The notes under the pieces were generated by a model. It was given only the letters and a program-made list of their open reading frames with translations. It was not told the DNA's origin and did not search any database. Made by a program: the position numbers and the translations under genes. 64,000 bases of DNA from an uncultured Chthoniobacterales bacterium (lineage in GTDB: Bacteria; Verrucomicrobiota; Verrucomicrobiia; Chthoniobacterales; SZAS-18), in the NCBI GenBank assembly GCA_964250695.1, contig CAXUGY010000013.1:5291-69290 (forward strand), given 5' to 3'. Shown piece after piece: positions 15,929 to 59,590 of this stretch (position 1 is the first letter of the stretch; each line of letters begins with the position of its first letter).

Positions 15929-18475
15929 TCACGGCGAGCCTCCTTCGGAAAACCAGCCGAAGCTCGGCGTCGATTCGTCCTCCCGGGTGCGGGGCTTGCC
16001 TTTGCGCGCGTGCGCGGTCGTGGACGGCACGTCGAAGACTTCCGCCTTCGTGCCGCCCGTTTCCAACCGTCCCAGGATTTCCTTCGCCCGGTCGATGATT
16101 TCCGCCGGTAACCCGGCCAGCCGCGCGACCTGAATCCCGTAGGAACGGTCCGCCGCGCCGGGGATGATCCGGTGCAAAAACACGATCTCGTCGTTCCACT
16201 CGCGCACGGCCACCGTGAAGTTTTTTGCCGCCGGGTGCGTGACGGCCAGCTCGGTCAACTCGTGGTAATGCGTGGCGAAGAGCGTCAGCGCGCCCGTCCG
16301 GTCGTGCAGGTGTTCGGCCACGCTCCAGGCGATGGAGAGGCCGTCGTAGGTCGAGGTTCCGCGCCCGATTTCGTCGAGGATCACGAGGCTCTGCGCCGTC
16401 GCGTGATGGATGATGTTCGCCGTCTCGTTCATCTCCACGAGAAACGTGCTCTGGCCCTTCGACAAGTCGTCGTTGGCCCCGACGCGGGTAAAGATGCGAT
16501 CCACCAACCCGATCTCCGCCTCCGCGGCCGGGACGTAACTCCCGGTCTGCGCCATCAGCACGAGCAACGCCGTCTGGCGCAGGTAGGTCGATTTGCCCGC
16601 CATGTTCGGCCCGGTCAACACGATGAGCCGATTCTCCGCCCGGTCGAGCGCCACGTCGTTGGGCACGAATTTCTCCCCGGCCAACTGCTGGTCCAACACC
16701 GGGTGCCGTCCGTCCCGGATGCGGATCGCTCCGGGCTCCGCCAGCCGGGGCCGGCAGTAGTTGAACTGCCGCGCCGTTTCCGCCAGCCCGGCCAACGCGT
16801 CGAACGCCGCTATCGCCGCCGCCGTTTTTTGCAACGACGCGGTTTCCTGCAAAACCTCCTGCCGCAGCTCGATGAAAAGTTGCGTCTCCAACTGGTGCGC
16901 GCGTTCCTCCGCCCCGAGAATCCGGCTTTCCATTTCTTTCAATTCGGGCGTGACGAACCGTTCGCCGCCCGCCGTCGTCTGTTTACGCTGGTAACGCTCC
17001 GGCACGCTGCCGAGGTTGCTCTTGGTGATTTCGATGTAGTAGCCGAACACCGAGTTGTACCGGATCTTGAGCGACTTGATCCCGGTGGTCTCGATCTCGC
17101 GTTCCTGCAAGGCGGCGATCCAGTCACGGCCCTCGGTCGTGGCGCGGCGCAGTGCGTCCAGTTCCGCGTGGTAGCCGTCGCGGAACATGCCGCCTTCCTT
17201 CACCCCGGCGGGCGGTTCGGGGGCGAGCGCCTGTTCCAGCCGGGCGGCGAGAAGCGGTAGCGGGTGCATCTGGCGTTCGACCCGCGCGGGCAGGCCGTCC
17301 CCCGGCGCACCGGCGGCGACCAACGATTGCAAAATCCGCTTCAATTCGGGCACCACCGCCAGCGACGCGCCCAACGCCGACAGGTCGCGCGCGTTGCCGT
17401 TGGCCTGGCTGAGCCGCCCGACGGTGCGTTCGAGATCGCGCACCTCGCGCAAGGTTTCCCGCGCCTGCCGCAAGCAATCCGGCGCGGCCAGCAGGTCGGC
17501 GATGAATTGCTGCCGGGCTTCCAACGCCGCCACGTCGCGCAACGGATAGAGCAGCCACTGCCGCAACTGCCGCGCGCCGAGCGGCGTCACCGTGCGGTCC
17601 AACGCCGCCAGCAAACTCGTGCCGCCCTCCGCGCGCGGCTTGACGATTTCCAGGTGCGCCTGCGAAACCTGGTCCAGCACCAGAAACGCCTCCGCCCGGT
17701 AGCTCCGCAGCGTCAGCACGTGGTCCAGCGACCGGCGCATCTGGTGTTGGAGATAATGAAAAATCGCTCCCGCCGCGCTCACCCCCCGGGGCAGGTTCGC
17801 GCAGCCGAAACCGTCGAGCGACTGCACGCGAAAATGCTCCCGCAGCGTGAAATCCGCCTGCTCGAAGATGAACGCGTGGGCGTCGTAAGGCTGCGTCCCG
17901 GTGAAATCCTGGAACGCCTGCGCCTGCGCCGGTTCGTCGCTGACGATGAACTCCGCCGGGGACACCCGCGCCAGTTCGTCGAGCAACGCCGCGCCGTCCG
18001 GCAGTTCCGTGACGCGGAAACTCCCCGTCGTCAGATCGAGGTAGGCGAACCCGTAACCCCCCTTGCGGAAACACGCGGCGGCGAGGTAATGATTGCGCCC
18101 GGCGTCGAGGAGTTGTGTGTTGTTGACCGTGCCCGCGCTGAGCACTTGCGTCACTTCCCGCTCGACCAGTTTGCCGGGCAGCACGTCGCCCTTTTGCTCG
18201 CAGATGGCGACGCGCTTGCCCGCCTTGATGAGCTTGGAGATGTACAGTTCCGCCGCGTGAAAAGGCACGCCGCACATCGGCGTCTCCTGACGGCGCGTGA
18301 GCGTGACGTTGAGGATCGGGCTGGCGGTCTTGGCGTCCTCGTTGAACAACTCGTAGAAATCACCCAACCGGAAAAACAGCAGCACGTCGGCGGGCAGGCT
18401 CGCCCGGATGCGCTGGTATTGGCGCATCATCGGCGTGGTCGCGGCGGGCAATTCGTCTGGAGGGCCGGAAGACAA
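15929..18475 (-). CDS. mutS: DNA mismatch repair protein MutS
   Basis: TPMMRQY, FFRLGDFYELF, TGPNMAGKST, STFLVEM, LDEIGRGTST, FATHYHEL, SYGIQVARLAGLP. Confidence 0.97.
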   Translation of the reverse strand: MSSGPPDELPAATTPMMRQYQRIRASLPADVLLFFRLGDFYELFNEDAKTASPILNVTLTRRQETPMCGVPFHAAELYISKLIKAGKRVAICEQKGDVLPGKLVEREVTQVLSAGTVNNTQLLDAGRNHYLAAACFRKGGYGFAYLDLTTGSFRVTELPDGAALLDELARVSPAEFIVSDEPAQAQAFQDFTGTQPYDAHAFIFEQADFTLREHFRVQSLDGFGCANLPRGVSAAGAIFHYLQHQMRRSLDHVLTLRSYRAEAFLVLDQVSQAHLEIVKPRAEGGTSLLAALDRTVTPLGARQLRQWLLYPLRDVAALEARQQFIADLLAAPDCLRQARETLREVRDLERTVGRLSQANGNARDLSALGASLAVVPELKRILQSLVAAGAPGDGLPARVERQMHPLPLLAARLEQALAPEPPAGVKEGGMFRDGYHAELDALRRATTEGRDWIAALQEREIETTGIKSLKIRYNSVFGYYIEITKSNLGSVPERYQRKQTTAGGERFVTPELKEMESRILGAEERAHQLETQLFIELRQEVLQETASLQKTAAAIAAFDALAGLAETARQFNYCRPRLAEPGAIRIRDGRHPVLDQQLAGEKFVPNDVALDRAENRLIVLTGPNMAGKSTYLRQTALLVLMAQTGSYVPAAEAEIGLVDRIFTRVGANDDLSKGQSTFLVEMNETANIIHHATAQSLVILDEIGRGTSTYDGLSIAWSVAEHLHDRTGALTLFATHYHELTELAVTHPAAKNFTVAVREWNDEIVFLHRIIPGAADRSYGIQVARLAGLPAEIIDRAKEILGRLETGGTKAEVFDVPSTTAHARKGKPRTREDESTPSFGWFSEGGSP

Positions 18476-41089: not shown

Positions 41090-43051
41090 CTACCCGGACG
41101 CCGCGCGCACCGCGTCCGCAGGGGTGGCTTCCAACGCCGGGTTCGGCAGGCAATGAACGAACGGGCAAACTTGCGAAATCGCTGCTCCGAGCGACTCGAC
41201 GACCCAATCGGCATGGACCGTCTGCAAATTTTTGCGCGAACCGACCGCCGGGCGTTTCAAGTCCCACAATCCGATCAAGATTTTCAACTGCGGATAGCGC
41301 GCACGCATCCGCTTGGCGAGGTAACGCGCCTGCATCACGGCAAACGGACGCACCAGCGAAAGGCAGACGACATCGGCCTCGCACGCGGCAAAAGCGTCGA
41401 GCGCCTCGTTGGCCAGCGCCTTGTGCGAGAGCACTTTGCTGCCCACCCCGCCGAGCGTGAGCAAGTGCGAGAGCATCTCGCCCGCCAACTCGTCCGCCGC
41501 GTTTTTCACGGGCAGGATCAGCACGCGCAGAGGCAAATCCTCCGCGTGCGCCACGGTCGCCGGCAGCGCGGAGGCGACCTGATCCGGCGTGGTTTCCACA
41601 CGGTCGGCGGCGGCTTCAACGGCGGACTCGGGGATCAACTCCGCCGAAGGGCGCTCCCGTAATTCATCGACCAAAACGCGCGCGGTCTGAAGAATGAAAT
41701 CCTGCCGGTCCAGCCCGAGGCTGCCCTGTTGCGCATCGGTCTGCGCCTGGTTAAGCGTGGGAATGAGCACGCTGTCGTAAAACTCGGCCACCGGATGTCC
41801 GGCCAGATATTCATCGACCAACTGGGAAATTTCCTCCTGGTCCGCCGCGAGCAAGCGTTGGTACAAGCGCGCGTCCTGCGGCAGCACCGGCTCGTCACCA
41901 AGCAGCGTGTGCAAAAATTCCAGTTGCGGCACGTAGCGTCCCAGCACCACGATGCACACCGTCAGCGGCGTGGACAACAGCAGCCCCATGCCGCCCCAGA
42001 GCCACGTCCAGAACGTCGCCGCCACGACAATCGCCACCGGCGACAGGCCGGTGCTGGTGCCGTAAAGCCACGGTTCGACCGCGTTCCCCGTCACGAGTTC
42101 AAGGGCCACGAACAGCCCGAGCGTCAGCGCCACGGGCCAGGAAGACGCGAAAGCCCCCGTCGCCAACGCCAGCGGCCCCACCGCGCTGATCCACACGCCC
42201 ACGTAGGGCACGAACCGCAGCGAGGCCGCCAGGATTCCCCACAACGGCGCGGCGGGCACCCCGATGAAAAACAAACCGAGCGCGATCCCCGCACCGAACG
42301 TCACGTTGACCGTCACCTGCATCAACAGATACCGGCTCACACGCTGGCCAGCCTCATCCACCGCCTGCGTGGTGATCGGCAAGCGGTCCGGTCCCGTCAG
42401 GTGCAGCAAACGGTCGCGCAGGTCTTCTCGTTGGATCAACATGAAGATCGTAAAAATAACGACCACGAACGCCGTGCCCACCGGGGTCAGCAGGGTGCCG
42501 AACAGGTTGCGCAGAAACTGCGGCGCGGTCACCGACGGCACGACGATCCGCACAGGCAGCGGCGGCTTTTCCGGCTCCGCCACCGGTCGCGCGGAAAGCA
42601 ACGCGGGAATCGAGACCGCGCCCGGGCTGGAAGGGACGGCGGGCGCCTCCGATTTTTTTTCGATGTCGGCCAGCACCGTGGCGGCAGTCTTGATGGCCCC
42701 GCCATGTCCGCGCAAATCCTGGAGCTTGCGTTGGATGTTGTCCTGATAGCCGGGCAGTTTTTCCGCCAGGCCCACGACCTGATGCGCCGTCACCCAACCC
42801 ACCGCCGCGAAAATTCCGAAGAAGGCGGCGGTAACCACCAGAACCGACGGAACCCGCCAGAGACCGATTCGTTCGATCCTGCGGACTACCGGACCGAGCA
42901 AGAAACTGAATAAAATCGCCAGCGCCAGAGGGATTAAAACCTCTCTGGCGAAGTAGAGGACCGCCACGATTCCCACCAGCACCCCATAAGGCAGCGGGCG
43001 GGAATGCGGGGCTGAAAGTGGGGCGCGCACGATCAAAGTGTCGCTTCCCAT
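41090..43051 (-). CDS. AI-2E (PerM) family transporter with soluble C-terminal extension
   Basis: LIPLALAILFSFLL, LRFVPYVG, VEPWLYG, GLLLSTPLTV; C-terminal Rossmann-like segment (DVVCLS...ILIGLW). Confidence 0.85.
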   Translation of the reverse strand: MGSDTLIVRAPLSAPHSRPLPYGVLVGIVAVLYFAREVLIPLALAILFSFLLGPVVRRIERIGLWRVPSVLVVTAAFFGIFAAVGWVTAHQVVGLAEKLPGYQDNIQRKLQDLRGHGGAIKTAATVLADIEKKSEAPAVPSSPGAVSIPALLSARPVAEPEKPPLPVRIVVPSVTAPQFLRNLFGTLLTPVGTAFVVVIFTIFMLIQREDLRDRLLHLTGPDRLPITTQAVDEAGQRVSRYLLMQVTVNVTFGAGIALGLFFIGVPAAPLWGILAASLRFVPYVGVWISAVGPLALATGAFASSWPVALTLGLFVALELVTGNAVEPWLYGTSTGLSPVAIVVAATFWTWLWGGMGLLLSTPLTVCIVVLGRYVPQLEFLHTLLGDEPVLPQDARLYQRLLAADQEEISQLVDEYLAGHPVAEFYDSVLIPTLNQAQTDAQQGSLGLDRQDFILQTARVLVDELRERPSAELIPESAVEAAADRVETTPDQVASALPATVAHAEDLPLRVLILPVKNAADELAGEMLSHLLTLGGVGSKVLSHKALANEALDAFAACEADVVCLSLVRPFAVMQARYLAKRMRARYPQLKILIGLWDLKRPAVGSRKNLQTVHADWVVESLGAAISQVCPFVHCLPNPALEATPADAVRAASG

Positions 43052-43122: not shown

Positions 43123-43230
43123 TTTGTCATCCTGAGCGGAGGCTGGCAGCCGCCGTCGCAGGACCTTCCGGTGTCTGCTGACGACCGGGAGATCCTTCGA
43201 TGCGCTTACGCGCTTGCTCAGGATGACAAA
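43123..43230. mobile_element. Palindromic MITE/RPE-like element (GTCATCCTGAGC family), copy 1
   Basis: Perfect 15-bp terminal inverted repeats TTTGTCATCCTGAGC/GCTCAGGATGACAAA; internal GGACCTTCCG...GATCCTTCGA shared with 53666-53837. Confidence 0.7.
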
Positions 43231-45341: not shown

Positions 45342-45450
45342 GAATGGTCCGCAGATTTCCGCAGATGAAAGAAGAGAGGACAGAAGAAATCTTTCTTTGT
45401 ACCTGCTTCAATCTGCGGAAATCTGCGTAATCTGCGGACCATTCTTACAG
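45336..45450. repeat. Palindromic CCGCAGAT/ATCTGCGG repeat element, copy 1
   Basis: Perfect 22-bp terminal IR CTGTAAGAATGGTCCGCAGATT / AATCTGCGGACCATTCTTACAG plus a second inner IR. Confidence 0.8.
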
Positions 45451-46599
45451 CATCTTCCGCAACGTCTTCGTGCCCTCGAAACACTCCTCCGCACAGGCGC
45501 GCGCCTGCCGGGACAGCACCGGCCAGTCACGCAACGTGCGCTCGACGGCTTCCCGCGCCTGTTCCAGCGTGCGGATTTCCACGAACCCGCTTTCCGGCGG
45601 GAGGTAACGGCCCACGGCGGCATCCTCCGTGATGACCGGGCGGCCCGTCGCCAGGAACGCCGCCGCGCGGTCGCTCACCCAACCGGTGCGCCACAGGCAG
45701 TCCACGCCCTTGATCGCCGTGAACTCCGCCAGCGCGCCGCGCAGATACCGGCGGTACACGGCGGGCGAGGACGCCACCTCGTGCGGCTCGACGCAATGCC
45801 AGCCGTGCGCTTCCAACCGCACGCGCTCCGGGTTGCCGGGGCCGAGGTTCATGGCCAGTTCCATCCGGGCGGCGGGCACCAGGGAGGGCAGGGTCAAAAA
45901 CGGCTCGAACCGGGCGCGCTTGGACAGGTCGGGGAACGCGCCGTCCACCTCGATGTTGTTCGCCCAATACCACTGGCCGATGGTCGTGAACCGCCCTTGC
46001 GGCGGGCGCGGGGCCGGGCGGTTGAGCGTGGTGTCCACCAACGGGAAAAAGGTTTGCCAGCGGAGACCGTTGTCGGGCAACAGGCAGTCAGGGGCGTGGT
46101 GGTTGAGGCCGATGGTCCAGAACTCGTGGTGGAACGACTGGCCCATCTCGACGCGGGTCATCCAGAAGGAAATCTCGCCGGGGTCCAGGTCGCAAAAGAG
46201 CCGCCGCTCGAAGCGCAGCAGGAACGGCGGGTGGATCGAATAACTCAGGTTGAGGAGGGTGTTCGGACCGGCGAGGCGGTTTTCCAGTTCGGCCTTGCTC
46301 AGGCCGTAGGCGCGCATCACCGGGAGGTCGTGTGCGTCGCCGGCCGGGTCCTGGTAAAGCAGGCAGTAGTGGTTTTCGAGGCCATGCTGCGCGAGGCGTT
46401 CGCGGAACGAGCGGATGCAGGCGCGGTCCTGGGCGGGGTCCTGGCTGGCCGGGAGCAGTTCCAGCCAGACGAAATCGACGCCCAGTTTTTGCAACCCGAG
46501 CGCCCATTGCAGCGGCACGGAAAAGTTCCCGCCTCCGAGCCGGTACTTGGCCGCGAAACCGCTGCCGAGGAAGACGGTGCCTGCGTTGCGTGGTTTCAT
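45445..46599 (-). CDS. Glycosyltransferase-like hypothetical protein (GT-B, CgeB/YkvP-like C-terminus)
   Basis: WVSDRAAAFLATGRPVITED and C-terminal helix pattern resemble GT-B donor-binding domains. Confidence 0.55.
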   Translation of the reverse strand: MKPRNAGTVFLGSGFAAKYRLGGGNFSVPLQWALGLQKLGVDFVWLELLPASQDPAQDRACIRSFRERLAQHGLENHYCLLYQDPAGDAHDLPVMRAYGLSKAELENRLAGPNTLLNLSYSIHPPFLLRFERRLFCDLDPGEISFWMTRVEMGQSFHHEFWTIGLNHHAPDCLLPDNGLRWQTFFPLVDTTLNRPAPRPPQGRFTTIGQWYWANNIEVDGAFPDLSKRARFEPFLTLPSLVPAARMELAMNLGPGNPERVRLEAHGWHCVEPHEVASSPAVYRRYLRGALAEFTAIKGVDCLWRTGWVSDRAAAFLATGRPVITEDAAVGRYLPPESGFVEIRTLEQAREAVERTLRDWPVLSRQARACAEECFEGTKTLRKML

Positions 46600-52717: not shown

Positions 52718-53866
52718 CTACCGCCGCCGCCAGATCAACCGCACCAGGACGAACACCCCGACGAGCAGGACGAGTTTCCACGCGGAGGTGGTCCGGTTGT
52801 GTCTCTGGCTGGGGGTCGATTGGTTGCTCGGAACGGGCAAAGGCGAAGGCGATCCGAACGGCGAGAAAGGCCGCGCCGTTTCCACCGGGGTCGGCGCGCC
52901 GACCGGGTTGGAATCATCAACCGGTGCGGCGAAGGCGATCTTGGTCATCGCCGCCGGCAGCGCGGCCTGGGTCATGGCGGCGCGGGTCGCCGCATCCACG
53001 ACCACGTCGGTCGGGTCGCCGATCTCCGAGCCGATCACGTTCAACCCCTTGGCGATGTCTTCCCCGTTTTCGGGCGAGAAAAAATGCGTGGCGCTCCCTT
53101 TCATGTAATCCCCCTCGCCCTGGTAGCCGAACGCGATCACCTCCACGCCGTCCGCCCGCAGACGCCGGATTTCCTGCTGCACCCCGGCGACGCCCCGGTT
53201 GCTGGTGTCCTCGCCGTCGGTCAGGATCACCATGACCTGCCGCTCGTAGGGCGCGCCGGACGCGCGGCGTTGGCGAATGATCTTGCCCACCGCCGCGACC
53301 GTGTCCGCCAGCGGCGTGCCGCCCCCGGCGCGGAGGCGGTCCACGGCGGCGAGCACCTGCCGCTTGTCGTTGCGCGCCAACTGGACGAGCGGACCCGCGT
53401 TGAGCGCGGTCAGTCCGAAGCGGTCGTTGTCCGGCGCGCGTTCCAGCCACGCGTGAAAGGCCTCTTTGGCCATGCCGAGTTTTCGGTTGTCGTTCATGGA
53501 ACCGGAGTCGTCGAAGACGATGGAAACCGCCACGCCAGCCTGGGCGTTGCGTTCCTCGTCGAGCGCGGCCATGCGGGCGGTCCAGGCTGCGTCGCTGGAG
53601 GATGCCGGTGGTTGGGCACCCACCAGAGGCCGCATCGTCAACAAAACCGCCGCGCACCATACAACCTCTGTCACCCTGAGCGGAACGACGAAGGAGCGCG
53701 GTCGAAGGACCTTCCGGCCAGCGGCAGCGAAGCGTGATCGCAAGCACATCACCCTATTCAAGTGGCGGCCCTGCCTACCGGTGGTCGGAAGGTCCTTCGA
53801 CCGCGCTCGCAGACTCGCTCCGCTCAGGATGACAGAGCTTTTTATGCGGCGGTTTTTTGTGATCAT
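52718..53866 (-). CDS. Exported vWA domain protein with C-terminal membrane anchor
   Basis: MIDAS VSIVFDDSGSM, GGTPL, ILTDGED; P/S/T linker; WKLVLLVGVFVLVRLIWRRR tail; start 53866 or GTG 53890. Confidence 0.82.
   Translation of the reverse strand: MITKNRRIKSSVILSGASLRARSKDLPTTGRQGRHLNRVMCLRSRFAAAGRKVLRPRSFVVPLRVTEVVWCAAVLLTMRPLVGAQPPASSSDAAWTARMAALDEERNAQAGVAVSIVFDDSGSMNDNRKLGMAKEAFHAWLERAPDNDRFGLTALNAGPLVQLARNDKRQVLAAVDRLRAGGGTPLADTVAAVGKIIRQRRASGAPYERQVMVILTDGEDTSNRGVAGVQQEIRRLRADGVEVIAFGYQGEGDYMKGSATHFFSPENGEDIAKGLNVIGSEIGDPTDVVVDAATRAAMTQAALPAAMTKIAFAAPVDDSNPVGAPTPVETARPFSPFGSPSPLPVPSNQSTPSQRHNRTTSAWKLVLLVGVFVLVRLIWRRR
53666..53837. mobile_element. Palindromic MITE/RPE-like element (GTCATCCTGAGC family), copy 2, within the vWA reading frame
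   Basis: Terminal IR CTCTGTCACCCTGAGCGGA / TCCGCTCAGGATGACAGAG (1 mismatch); internal CGCGGTCGAAGGACCTTCCG/CGGAAGGTCCTTCGACCGCG IR. Confidence 0.75.
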
Positions 53867-53886
53867 GGCGTCAATAAGTTGAAAGC

Positions 53887-55731
53887 TCACTTCAAATCGT
53901 CCGCGCCGATCTCCGCCGGAATTTCGCTCTCGGCGGCGATGATGACCATTTCCCCGCGCATGTTTTCGGCGCGCTGTTCGGGCGTTTGCGGGTTCTTGAC
54001 GACGGGATTGCCGAGACCCATACCCTTCACGTCGAAGCGCGACAGGTCCACCTCGTCCGGGCCGAGGTGCAAGTTCTCGCGCACGTAGGCCGCGTAGGCC
54101 CGCTTGACCGCGAAGGCGCGCGAATACGACAGCGCGTTGGCGTCGTTGAGAAGTTCCTCCGGTTTGGGCAGCGGCAGGGTCTCGAATTTATCCGTGCCCG
54201 CGACGCGGCGCTGGTAGGTCGTCTGGCCTTGCGCCTGCTTGGCCTGCACAAAATTGTAGAAGAAATTATCCGCGTTACCGCGCAGTTGCACCACCGCGCC
54301 GCCGTAACGGCTGACCGTCTCGTTGATCTTGCTAAACACGTCCGGGTAATCGCTCCACTTGATCTCGCTGACCTGCGCCGGGAATTTGAACGTGTAGCGG
54401 TACATGATGTTCGCACCCGCGCTGTCGGCGGCCTTGCGCACCGCCTGGGTCGAGGCGAACGCGGGCTTCGGCGTTTCCAGGGTGACACCTTTTCCTTTGT
54501 CAAACCCGCCGGGGGTCACACCGGGCGCGGGCCGGTTGTAGGCGATGGTCACCGGGCTTTCGATCAGGCCCAACCCTTGAAAGAATTCCTGGATGCGCGC
54601 CGTCGTCGCCCGGAAGCCGACCGGGCTGGCGTCGTCGAAAAACCGCGCGTTGCCCGCCCGGCCCGCGAGCTGCGAATCGCTGCCGACCCAGATGATGTAA
54701 TCGCTGACGGCGTTCTCATCCTGGTTGAAGATTTTTGCCAGCGGTTTGCACAACGTTTTGAAGTTGTTGACGCGCTTCTTGTCGGCGTCGCGGCCCTTCT
54801 TGACGTTGGCGAGTTCGTCCATGAACATCTCTTGCTGGCGGAGGTGCGCCTCGCGGAACGCCTCGACCAGTTCGGGGTGTTCGCCCAGGAAATCGCGCCG
54901 CACGGCGTAGGTGTCGAAGATGATGCTCGACGCCGTTTTCGTGGTGAAAATCGGGCGAGCGCCTTTGACCGTGCCTTCGAGGCCGGTGCCGGTCGTGCCA
55001 CCGGCAGTCAGGGCCAGGATGTCCGGCGAAATGCACGCCGCCCCGGTGAGCGACGGGTCACGGCGGAAGGCGTTGGCCGGGTCCTCGGCGGGAGCGGACG
55101 GCTTGGAGCCGGGGTCGGCGGTGATCTGCTTGACGAACTTGATCTGGACATCGCCGGGTTGGAGTCCGGCGTCTTTGAGCAGGTTGCCGATCAACGACAG
55201 GTGCGGCCCGTTGAGCTGCGTGACGAGGGTCTTGCCTTTCAGGTCGGCCAGCGTCCCGAGATTCTTGGCCACGAAACCGTCCGCGCCGGTCGAAGTGGAG
55301 AGTTGCAGCACGACCACCGGTTCCAGGTTGGGATCGACGGTTTTCAACGCTTGCGCCACCAGCGCGATCATGTCCGCCGTGCCGCGCAGGAACGGCGATT
55401 TCCCGGAGACGTAATTCTGTACCTGCTGGTCGAAATCGTCGATCACCTCCAGCTTCACCGGACGCCCGAGCGCGCGGGCCAGCGGCGAGTTGGGATTCGG
55501 CTCCAGGCCGCCGTTCGCGCTGACGGTCACGCCGTCCGCCGCCCAAGTGAGGAGCGGAATTTGCAACGCACCCTGCGCGCTGACGACCCCCTTGCGGGTT
55601 GTCTTGAGGAACAGAGACGCGCCGTATGGTTTGGCCGGTTCGACGTAACGCACCCCGGCGGGCGTCTGCGCCGAGGTGGACGCCAGTCCGAGACAGGAAC
55701 AAACTGCCGCCGCAAGCAAGGAACGTTTCAT
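53887..55731 (-). CDS. Exported solute-binding protein (NMT1/THI5-like) with divergent C-terminal OmpA-like domain
   Basis: Sec signal ..STSA-Q; IPLLTWAAD, SGKSPFLRGT, STGADG..LADLKGK; NALSYSRAFAVK..VKGMG..RAENMRGEMVII. Confidence 0.72.
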   Translation of the reverse strand: MKRSLLAAAVCSCLGLASTSAQTPAGVRYVEPAKPYGASLFLKTTRKGVVSAQGALQIPLLTWAADGVTVSANGGLEPNPNSPLARALGRPVKLEVIDDFDQQVQNYVSGKSPFLRGTADMIALVAQALKTVDPNLEPVVVLQLSTSTGADGFVAKNLGTLADLKGKTLVTQLNGPHLSLIGNLLKDAGLQPGDVQIKFVKQITADPGSKPSAPAEDPANAFRRDPSLTGAACISPDILALTAGGTTGTGLEGTVKGARPIFTTKTASSIIFDTYAVRRDFLGEHPELVEAFREAHLRQQEMFMDELANVKKGRDADKKRVNNFKTLCKPLAKIFNQDENAVSDYIIWVGSDSQLAGRAGNARFFDDASPVGFRATTARIQEFFQGLGLIESPVTIAYNRPAPGVTPGGFDKGKGVTLETPKPAFASTQAVRKAADSAGANIMYRYTFKFPAQVSEIKWSDYPDVFSKINETVSRYGGAVVQLRGNADNFFYNFVQAKQAQGQTTYQRRVAGTDKFETLPLPKPEELLNDANALSYSRAFAVKRAYAAYVRENLHLGPDEVDLSRFDVKGMGLGNPVVKNPQTPEQRAENMRGEMVIIAAESEIPAEIGADDLK

Positions 55732-58945: not shown

Positions 58946-59590
58946 TCAAGCCTGCGCCGAACGGCGGCGCACGAGCAAAGCCGCGCCGCCGGTCAATGCC
59001 AGACCGAGCAGAACGGACGCCGAGGGCTCGGGCACAGCGGGCAGCGCCGAGCCGTTCACCTGGAATTCCTGCGGACCGGCCGCCAGACTCCGATAAACCG
59101 TGGTGTTACCCGTCACGAAAAAGGAGGCGCTGGTCGCCGGGAGGCTCGCCCCGAAAGCAGAAGCGTAATCCGTGGAACTGGTGTAGCTCCATTCGACGGT
59201 GCTGCCGCCACCGCTGGTCAGCACAAAATAATACCCGCTGTTGGCCTGCAAGGTAAACGCCCCGCTGACCGTGGCCGTGGTGACAGTGGACGCGCTGTTG
59301 AAGCCCACGGAAAAGCCGGTGAAGAGCGAGGCGCCCAAGGTGCCGTCGGCATTGCGGCTGTACACCGCGACGCTCTCACCGGTACCCAGACCGCCGGTTT
59401 GCAGGAACATCACGCTGGTCAGCGAAATCGGTCGGTTGCCGGTCAACAACGCTTGGCCGATCCGAGTGGCATTCTCCCCGAACGCTGGATTGTCGGGATC
59501 GAGATTGCTGACGACAACCGCCGCGCCTGCTTGCTGCCCGGTCAGACCCAGCAAAGCCAAGCAAAGAAATCCTAATAAATGTTTTTTCAT
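58946..59590 (-). CDS. PEP-CTERM exported protein
   Basis: Signal peptide ..QQAGA-AVVVSNL; C-terminal VPEPSASVLLGLALTGGAALLVRRR. Confidence 0.9.
   Translation of the reverse strand: MKKHLLGFLCLALLGLTGQQAGAAVVVSNLDPDNPAFGENATRIGQALLTGNRPISLTSVMFLQTGGLGTGESVAVYSRNADGTLGASLFTGFSVGFNSASTVTTATVSGAFTLQANSGYYFVLTSGGGSTVEWSYTSSTDYASAFGASLPATSASFFVTGNTTVYRSLAAGPQEFQVNGSALPAVPEPSASVLLGLALTGGAALLVRRRSAQA

Follow-up and report, generated by a model that had tools for sequence, protein, structure and literature searches.

Palindromes inserted in frame have been familiar since the Rickettsia palindromic elements (RPEs), and whether they are translated has usually been argued from single genomes. Bacterial miniature inverted-repeat transposable elements (MITEs), such as Correia/NEMIS and ERIC, are short and non-autonomous, carry terminal inverted repeats and have the same ends as a partner that carries a gene; the number of copies varies patchily from one close relative to the next, and the elements may be co-transcribed and fold as RNA hairpins. 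RPEs and the intragenic copies of repetitive extragenic palindromes (REPs) are repeated palindromes that lie in frame in open reading frames (ORFs), N-termini included, where they add tens of residues without destroying the protein and are absent from orthologues elsewhere. The segments encoded by intragenic REPs measure 20–82 aa, and evidence for the expression of proteins decorated with RPEs at the N-terminus is cited in the same study (Di Nocera et al. 2013, PMC3733652). CGTC-tagged REPs are 20–40 bp units with a local stem of 8–9 bp, a loop of 4–5 nt and a tag at one end only; TGTC is an allowed variant of the tag, and no dedicated transposase has been found for them (Di Nocera, De Gregorio, Rocco 2013). 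Ssn GIY-YIG single-strand nucleases have flanking NTS/SRM hairpins, a repeat-gene-repeat layout whose insertion sequence (IS)-like character was remarked on by the authors (Chenal et al. 2025, PMC11893778). Here we describe a locus in a window of 64,000 nt, the whole stretch of DNA analysed, from an uncultured Chthoniobacterales bacterium (GCA_964250695.1, contig CAXUGY010000013.1, positions 5,291 to 69,290): a palindromic element of 171 nt, or 57 stop-free codons, on the minus strand at 53666-53836, within the signal peptide of a vWA gene. Comparison with orthologous loci suggests that the element is most likely translated as part of the vWA protein, from the ancestral ATG through the hairpin, and that the insert has been kept as coding sequence.

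The locus displays RPE-like behaviour by a MITE-like family that is linked to a GIY-YIG nuclease, and we liken it to the known systems and file it as a member of none. The likeness to RPEs that an initial annotation of this DNA had drawn stands as one of behaviour, that is, of palindromic insertion in frame, and kinship of sequence is no part of it. RPEs differ in that our host belongs to the Verrucomicrobia (Chthoniobacterales), that our element measures 126–171 nt and has long terminal inverted repeats, and that its site is the junction of n-region and h-region in a signal peptide; moreover, upkeep of the frame is seen here across five orthologous copies of varied length.

A palindromic element in the signal peptide of a vWA gene

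The vWA gene (52718..53866, minus strand) has 382 codons counted from the ancestral ATG, and its product is laid out as a signal peptide with the insert, a VWA domain, a Pro/Ser-rich linker and a C-terminal transmembrane (TM) anchor ending in RRR. The ATG (53866-53864) lies 20 nt past the TGA (53889-53887) of the upstream gene in the operon, as the initial annotation had it, and this gene (53887..55731, minus strand; 614 aa, SBP/OmpA-like, ending in ..ADDLK before its stop) served as synteny anchor for the orthologous loci. From the ATG runs a basic n-region of 10 codons, MITKNRRIKS (53837..53866, minus strand), and the h- and c-regions, VVWCAAVLLTMRPLVGA (53615..53665, minus strand), have a predicted cleavage site before Q (53614-53612), downstream of which come QPPASSSDAAW and then the VWA domain. 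Between the two regions stands the element, SVILSGASLRARSKDLPTTGRQGRHLNRVMCLRSRFAAAGRKVLRPRSFVVPLRVTE (53666..53836, minus strand), and the earlier description of a stop-free palindrome of ~171 nt in frame between MITKNRRIKS and VVWCAAVLLTMRPLVGA-Q was confirmed at these coordinates. We judged the signal peptide from its sequence and from an alignment with 11 empty orthologues, meaning those without the element: the traits of a Sec-type signal (basic n-region, hydrophobic h-region, small-x-small site) are present in the vWA protein and kept in the orthologues, and its h-region aligns with theirs, for example with WWLAAVTMALWLGAASA. The public gene call P0001 (284 aa) begins at MAALDEE (ATG 53572-53570) and leaves the signal peptide out, and the same type of truncated call was made for P0003, P0006 and P0008, which bear the element, and for P0004, which is empty. 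We consider the public start of P0001 wrong, the protein being annotated from past its signal peptide.

The symmetric core of the element, CTCTGTCA...TGACAGAG, occupies 53666-53837, and complementarity reaches 53663-53840. The arms at 53694-53727/53775-53808 are 91% complementary and those at 53663-53688/53815-53840 are 88% complementary; the calculated RNA fold has -138 kcal/mol (z = -13.4), and 0 of 200 shuffles were as stable. The ends of the element are fixed only to within ~10 nt, because the family consensus runs on into A-rich and T-rich flanks. A perfect inverted repeat of 11 nt (AAAACCGCCGC / GCGGCGGTTTT) surrounds the element, with its left half at 53643..53653 and its right half at 53846..53856 within codons 4-7 of the n-region; it lengthens the hairpin, which on the mRNA is then followed by UUUUGUUG. 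The chance of such an outer repeat is 3.8e-4 per random site, and a portion of the repeat (GCGGCGGT, which encodes AAV) derives from ancestral coding sequence. This outer stem and the U-tract are specific to the present copy, being absent from the four other loci that hold a complete element (see below), and a simple terminator scan of the region found none on the vWA gene strand; on these grounds the idea of an intrinsic terminator, or of a conserved target hairpin, with the element in its loop was set aside. Likewise, a sub-threshold match of the element region to a plant miRNA in Rfam (32 bits against a gathering score of 100) was dismissed as a chance match to a long hairpin. The element at the vWA locus is not an assembly artefact: a Logan contig of 2850 nt from a lichen metagenome (run X1) covers 53371-54200 with the whole element included, junction contigs from two further lichen-metagenome samples (X3, X4) each span one element edge, and among the Logan contigs of these three samples none joins the flanks without the element.

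Empty sites were found in the alignment of 11 orthologues, eight of them from genomes of the same genus and three from closer relatives, P0002 (84% identity), P0004 (77%) and P0005 (70%). In the eight same-genus genomes the vWA gene lies in the same operon and its signal peptides are ordinary, of 22–37 aa, a size range that also covers the three closer relatives; the upstream gene ending in ..DDLK directly precedes it in seven, and the sequence just upstream differs in L005. Where the upstream gene is present, the signal peptides of the empty orthologues (MKTAARNGWWLAAVTMALWLGAASAGWSQQ is an example) start 0–25 nt past its stop. The initial annotation had allowed that the element might be simply intergenic if orthologues lacked such a leader; because the empty orthologues keep it, the element is not simply intergenic, and the comparison bears out the proposal of a mobile palindrome inserted in frame between the n- and h-regions of a Sec-type signal.

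A complete family member stands after exactly codon 10 in four further orthologous loci, from other metagenome assemblies and with 65–86% protein identity. Measured between the same two boundaries in all five copies (codons being nt/3), the insert has 57 codons (171 nt) in our gene (P0001), 49 codons (147 nt) in L093 (P0003, 86% identity to ours), 42 codons (126 nt) in L096 (P0007, 65%), and 56 codons (168 nt) both in L097 (P0006, 73%) and in L098 (P0008, 73%). In a sixth filled locus, L100, the contig breaks off within the element, and only the right end, just ahead of the h-region, is visible. All five complete inserts have a length divisible by three and share one element frame (SVILS... 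...LRMTE), with 0 stops in the reading frame of each and 2–4 stops in the next frame, and the single-base indels in the arms of the L096 copy are compensated further along. Of the 11 further copies with two ends in this genome, taken as a control, only 2 are frame-preserving in length and stop-free, and many have TAA in this frame. The upstream ATG and the 10-codon n-region are kept in all five complete loci, the n-regions of the other four (MITINRLPNY, MKKINRLPKT, MTKVNRYSEI and MSNNSHRREN) being homologous to MITKNRRIKS, and in each of the six filled loci the h-region, with its small-x-small site before Q, remains open, in frame and hydrophobic. The inserts encode basic peptides of net charge +6 to +12 (ours ~+12), and conservation extends to the rest of the vWA protein, in which the MIDAS motif and the C-terminal anchor are intact.

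A more distant orthologue, P0029 (L099:441-760), has at the same n/h junction an unrelated insert of ~72 codons with a 39-nt tandem repeat, and this insert, too, continues the frame of the ancestral ATG (MKTARHGGWC...). The n/h junction seems to be either tolerant of inserts or prone to them.

Probable translation and history of the insert

Because frame, absence of stops and ATG are conserved in the five complete copies, against a background of 2 in 11, purifying selection for an open frame through the hairpin is the simplest explanation. The course of events that we consider probable is as follows. A non-autonomous MITE-like palindrome, whose termini CTCTGTCATCCTGAGCGG... also flank a small GIY-YIG nuclease gene, would have entered the vWA gene where the basic n-region meets the hydrophobic core, probably in the ancestor of a clade of lichen-associated Chthoniobacterales, and would since have been retained as coding sequence, with the start still at the ancestral ATG 20 nt past the upstream stop. 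The ribosome would read the hairpin-forming element, making the n-region of the pre-protein longer by 42–57 mostly basic residues (57 here); the lengthened n-region would remain cytoplasmic, the unchanged h/c-region and the A-x-A site before Q would direct export and cleavage, and the mature vWA protein would be unaltered after cleavage. Among the consequences that the initial annotation had envisaged, an n-region longer by 57 aa is the favoured one, given that frame, length modulo three, absence of stops and ATG are conserved in five copies.

Several observations weigh against this course of events. A hairpin of -120 kcal/mol that begins 30 nt past the start codon could be a strong hindrance to translation, and in this copy the extra 11-bp outer stem overlaps codons 4-7. 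In every filled locus a terminal ATG or GTG lies in frame directly before the h-region, and initiation there is possible. The vWA tree needs multiple gains or losses, and the five copies are therefore not independent trials; in addition, the central module of our element differs from that of its closest relative L093, so that either replacement by recombination or a separate insertion has to be assumed. A search for RNA sequencing runs gave none. Finally, target-site duplications were sought in the family flanks and in seemingly 'empty' outer palindromes (described below), and no clear one was found.

The terminal codon offers a different start. In our copy it is an in-frame GTG (53672..53674, minus strand) within the terminal repeat GGGTGACAGAG, and in the other filled loci and in the family consensus an ATG occupies its position (GGATGACAG), which yields MTE or MTA directly before the h-region. 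If the element had taken over initiation, a short signal peptide consisting of MTE or VTE plus VVWCAAVLLTMRPLVGA would be made, and the upstream ATG, the n-region and the element body would form a structured 5′ leader. A ribosome starting at the terminal codon would be spared unwinding most of the hairpin, the conserved terminus puts an in-frame ATG before the h-region in L093, L096, L097, L098 and L100, and a gene caller picked the element ATG for P0007 (MTELVWCIAV..). However, the terminal ATG is part of the conserved terminal repeat, and its conservation is therefore uninformative as to whether ribosomes use it; the hairpin stem would also bury this codon. Moreover, a start at this codon predicts no constraint on length, stops or upstream ATG, whereas all three are conserved in five copies against the 2-in-11 background, and the resulting n-region would be without positive charge and, in three of the six, would contain an acidic residue; uncharged or acidic n-regions are unusual for Sec signals. 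We thus regard such a takeover as unlikely, and the terminal ATG or GTG possibly acts as a minor second start. That the insertion inactivated export, with the gene starting at MAALDEE or being a pseudogene and the element being intergenic junk or an RNA-level terminator or processing site in the operon, appears very improbable. The public calls at MAALDEE for our protein, P0003, P0006 and P0008 would fit loss of export, as would the extended hairpin followed by UUUUGUUG in this copy and the fruitless search for RNA sequencing runs, but the open, hydrophobic and in-frame h-region and A-x-A site before Q in six filled loci would be unexpected in untranslated DNA, and the intact MIDAS motif and C-terminal anchor show the rest of the protein to be conserved. 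A vWA domain with a C-terminal TM anchor would in any case need export, and a terminator is at odds with the negative scan on this strand and with the missing outer stem and U-tract in the other filled loci.

A further alternative concerns the history of the insertion. In the vWA tree all filled loci fall into one clade of nine sequences (support 100/99), three members of which are empty (P0002, P0004 and P0005); of these, P0002 forms a group with our protein and P0003 (98/90). Because filled and empty loci are mixed in this clade, the history must comprise either a single gain and two or more losses, or two or more gains at the same codon. The shared position could then stem from repeated independent insertions at a hot spot, the in-frame state being a filter at insertion only and not a matter of long-term maintenance, and we hold this to be possible, if rather doubtful. 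It is favoured, besides the tree, by the arms of L097 and L098, which are almost perfect, the differences between the two loci being mirrored, as in young copies; by our central module, which is of the type common in its own genome and unlike that of L093; and by the unrelated repeat insert at the same junction in L099. Against it stand the n-region, which has 10 codons without exception in the five complete copies, the central module common to L093, L097 and L098 despite host divergence (73–86% protein identity to ours), and the N-terminus MKKMT.. of P0002, which looks like a deletion footprint retaining the last bases of the element, ATGAC. Repeated insertion would still require the element to be translated, and it alters the history and not the mechanism. 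A single old insertion would be favoured by the identical 10-codon position, the module shared by L093, L097 and L098 and the N-terminus of P0002, and turnover or re-insertion by our genome-typical centre and the nearly perfect, mirrored arms of L097 and L098. A scan of metagenome contigs for closer relatives found none. Under either history, the insertion is not recent and the in-frame state is selected; the word 'recent' in the initial annotation had to be given up, as orthologues at 65–86% identity have a family member after the same codon.

The repeat family and its GIY-YIG nuclease partner

The number of family copies in the genome and the share within coding sequence, which the initial annotation had left to be counted, are ~40 loci and three loci, respectively. 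A blastn search of its 4.06-Mb genome (G000) with the element gave 34 matching loci. The exact terminal 13-mer GTCATCCTGAGCG occurs 49 times, at least two of these occurrences being ordinary coding sequence; the 13-mers inside long ORFs at C5:11651 and C7:3325 were accordingly rejected as elements. The smallest copies are mini-hairpins of ~48 nt and the largest are palindromes of ~170 nt; they have in common the termini CTCTGTCATCCTGAGCGG ... CCGCTCAGGATGACAGAG and a sub-terminal GTCGAAGGACC box, the segment between terminus and box and the centre being variable. Their flanks, A-rich on the left and T-rich on the right, may be part of the element, and no consistent direct repeat was seen in them. 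Within the genus the count of the 13-mer varies from 0 to 188 per genome, with 0 for a reversed control pattern in every genome, and such patchy copy number is what mobile-element proliferation would produce. A full-text literature search for the 13-mer returned no relevant paper.

The family is mostly intergenic, and several of its copies lie a short distance upstream of a gene start. The second copy in the window, with a core of 107 nt (43123..43229), is intergenic, ~72 nt upstream of the start of an ORF at 41090..43051 (minus strand), and is nested in an outer palindromic repeat. Such outer repeats constitute a second palindromic family (..AGAGCGCATCCCGATTGGGTAAGCC[GT]CG..GGTCCTTGCAAAG..), which holds about half of the element copies in its centre; examples in G000 are C6:79370-79490, C12:26570-26810 and C42:8233-8544. 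At least one outer copy looks empty (C6:79398-79459), and these repeats form a mosaic of nested modules.

Besides the vWA gene, the copies inside coding sequence lie in a U32-peptidase-like ORF and in an ORF of ~870 codons. The former (C58:16031-18679, minus strand, 883 codons) contains near 16900-17000 a half element in frame, TFCHPEWRVTGSKAESARPPQANLPTAGRLGQ, which is read in a different element frame from the vWA copy; at the same site the orthologue in G010 has a whole element in frame and that in G008 a remnant, so this in-frame copy is decayed in G000 and G008 and complete in G010. The latter, which has a coding-type signature of GC content at third codon positions (GC3), carries a 48-nt mini-element, CTCTGTCATCCTTCGACTCCGTTACACTCCGCTCAGGATGACAGAG, in frame at C3:~59521-59568.

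The only gene-carrying relative of the family is a cassette of ~440 bp (G000:C3:45383-45819), in which two inverted family arms surround a GIY-YIG gene, at 45442-45744, with a conserved core of ~100 residues. The small protein matches Pfam PF01541 with E = 2.4e-14, its best relatives in the PDB are the UPF0213 proteins 1zg2 and 1ywl, and it had no match in NCBIfam and received no name from PHROGs; a tblastn search of the genome gave no other small GIY-YIG gene of this type. The same arm-gene-arm cassette is present in the same-genus genomes G003 and G011. Among 80 loci of GIY-YIG homologues, 39 have the exact 13-mer within 1 kb, typically with one forward copy ~50 nt before the gene and one reverse copy ~50 nt after it, and such cassettes were seen in Acidobacteriota, Bacillota, Bacteroidota, Spirochaetota, Saccharibacteria and others. 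Moreover, in 41 related genomes the GIY-YIG gene was present in 7 of 10 with at least ten 13-mers and in 3 of 31 with fewer (Fisher p = 5e-4). We infer that the GIY-YIG nuclease mobilises the repeat family.

A bolder proposal would have the hairpin itself selected at the vWA site, as a translated RNA hairpin that sets translation rate or operon polarity, and would have the family moved by the nuclease of ~100 aa, whose ~440-bp cassette (terminal inverted repeat, gene, terminal inverted repeat) would be an autonomous transposon of a class unrecognised in bacteria and shared across phyla; we put this forward tentatively and think it improbable as a whole. Stem strength is preserved across the orthologous vWA copies, at -80 to -125 kcal/mol in all five, and 10 of 51 pairs show compensatory changes; the strong stems at vWA, set against the decayed U32 copy over similar divergence, may be a hint of selection on the hairpin. 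Gene conversion or concerted evolution among copies, or repeated insertion, explains the same stem data. An RNA-level role for the hairpin is compatible with translation of the insert from the ancestral ATG.

Relation to known repeats and significance

The outer tag of our element, TGTC followed by AT (TGTCATCC..; termini CTGTC-AT-CCTGAGCGG), resembles that of CGTC-tagged REPs, and both kinds of repeat are mostly intergenic with some intragenic copies. The CGTC repeats differ in that the partner of our ATCCTGAGCGG stem lies >100 nt away at the far end of the element and that both of our ends are tagged. The Ssn/SRM system is alike in having a small single-domain GIY-YIG gene between inverted copies of a repeat that is also dispersed, and in that gene presence tracks repeat number. 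It differs in the form of the repeat, ours having long terminal inverted repeats and composite palindromes of ~170 nt whereas SRMs are 30-nt hairpins; the SRM pattern HGTCWYN(0-2)YYVSBRHN(0-5)WNVSBRGN(0-2)RNCYNB (PMC11893778) had no match in the element or the cassette, and its 26 matches in this genome are at or below a Markov control. Our family shows traits of MITEs, with terminal inverted repeats common with a gene-carrying partner and 0–188 copies within the genus, but the only such partner encodes a GIY-YIG nuclease and not a known transposase.

The vWA locus is a natural series, in which five length variants at one codon of a signal peptide, in diverged relatives, are all in frame and stand beside empty alleles. 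It thus offers comparative evidence that a ribosome reads a hairpin-forming mobile element, and that a Sec signal peptide can tolerate an n-region lengthened by a basic stretch of 42–57 residues. It also corrects a public annotation in which the protein starts past its signal peptide, and it extends the link between small GIY-YIG nucleases and dispersed palindromic repeats to a Verrucomicrobia family that the published SRM motif does not cover.

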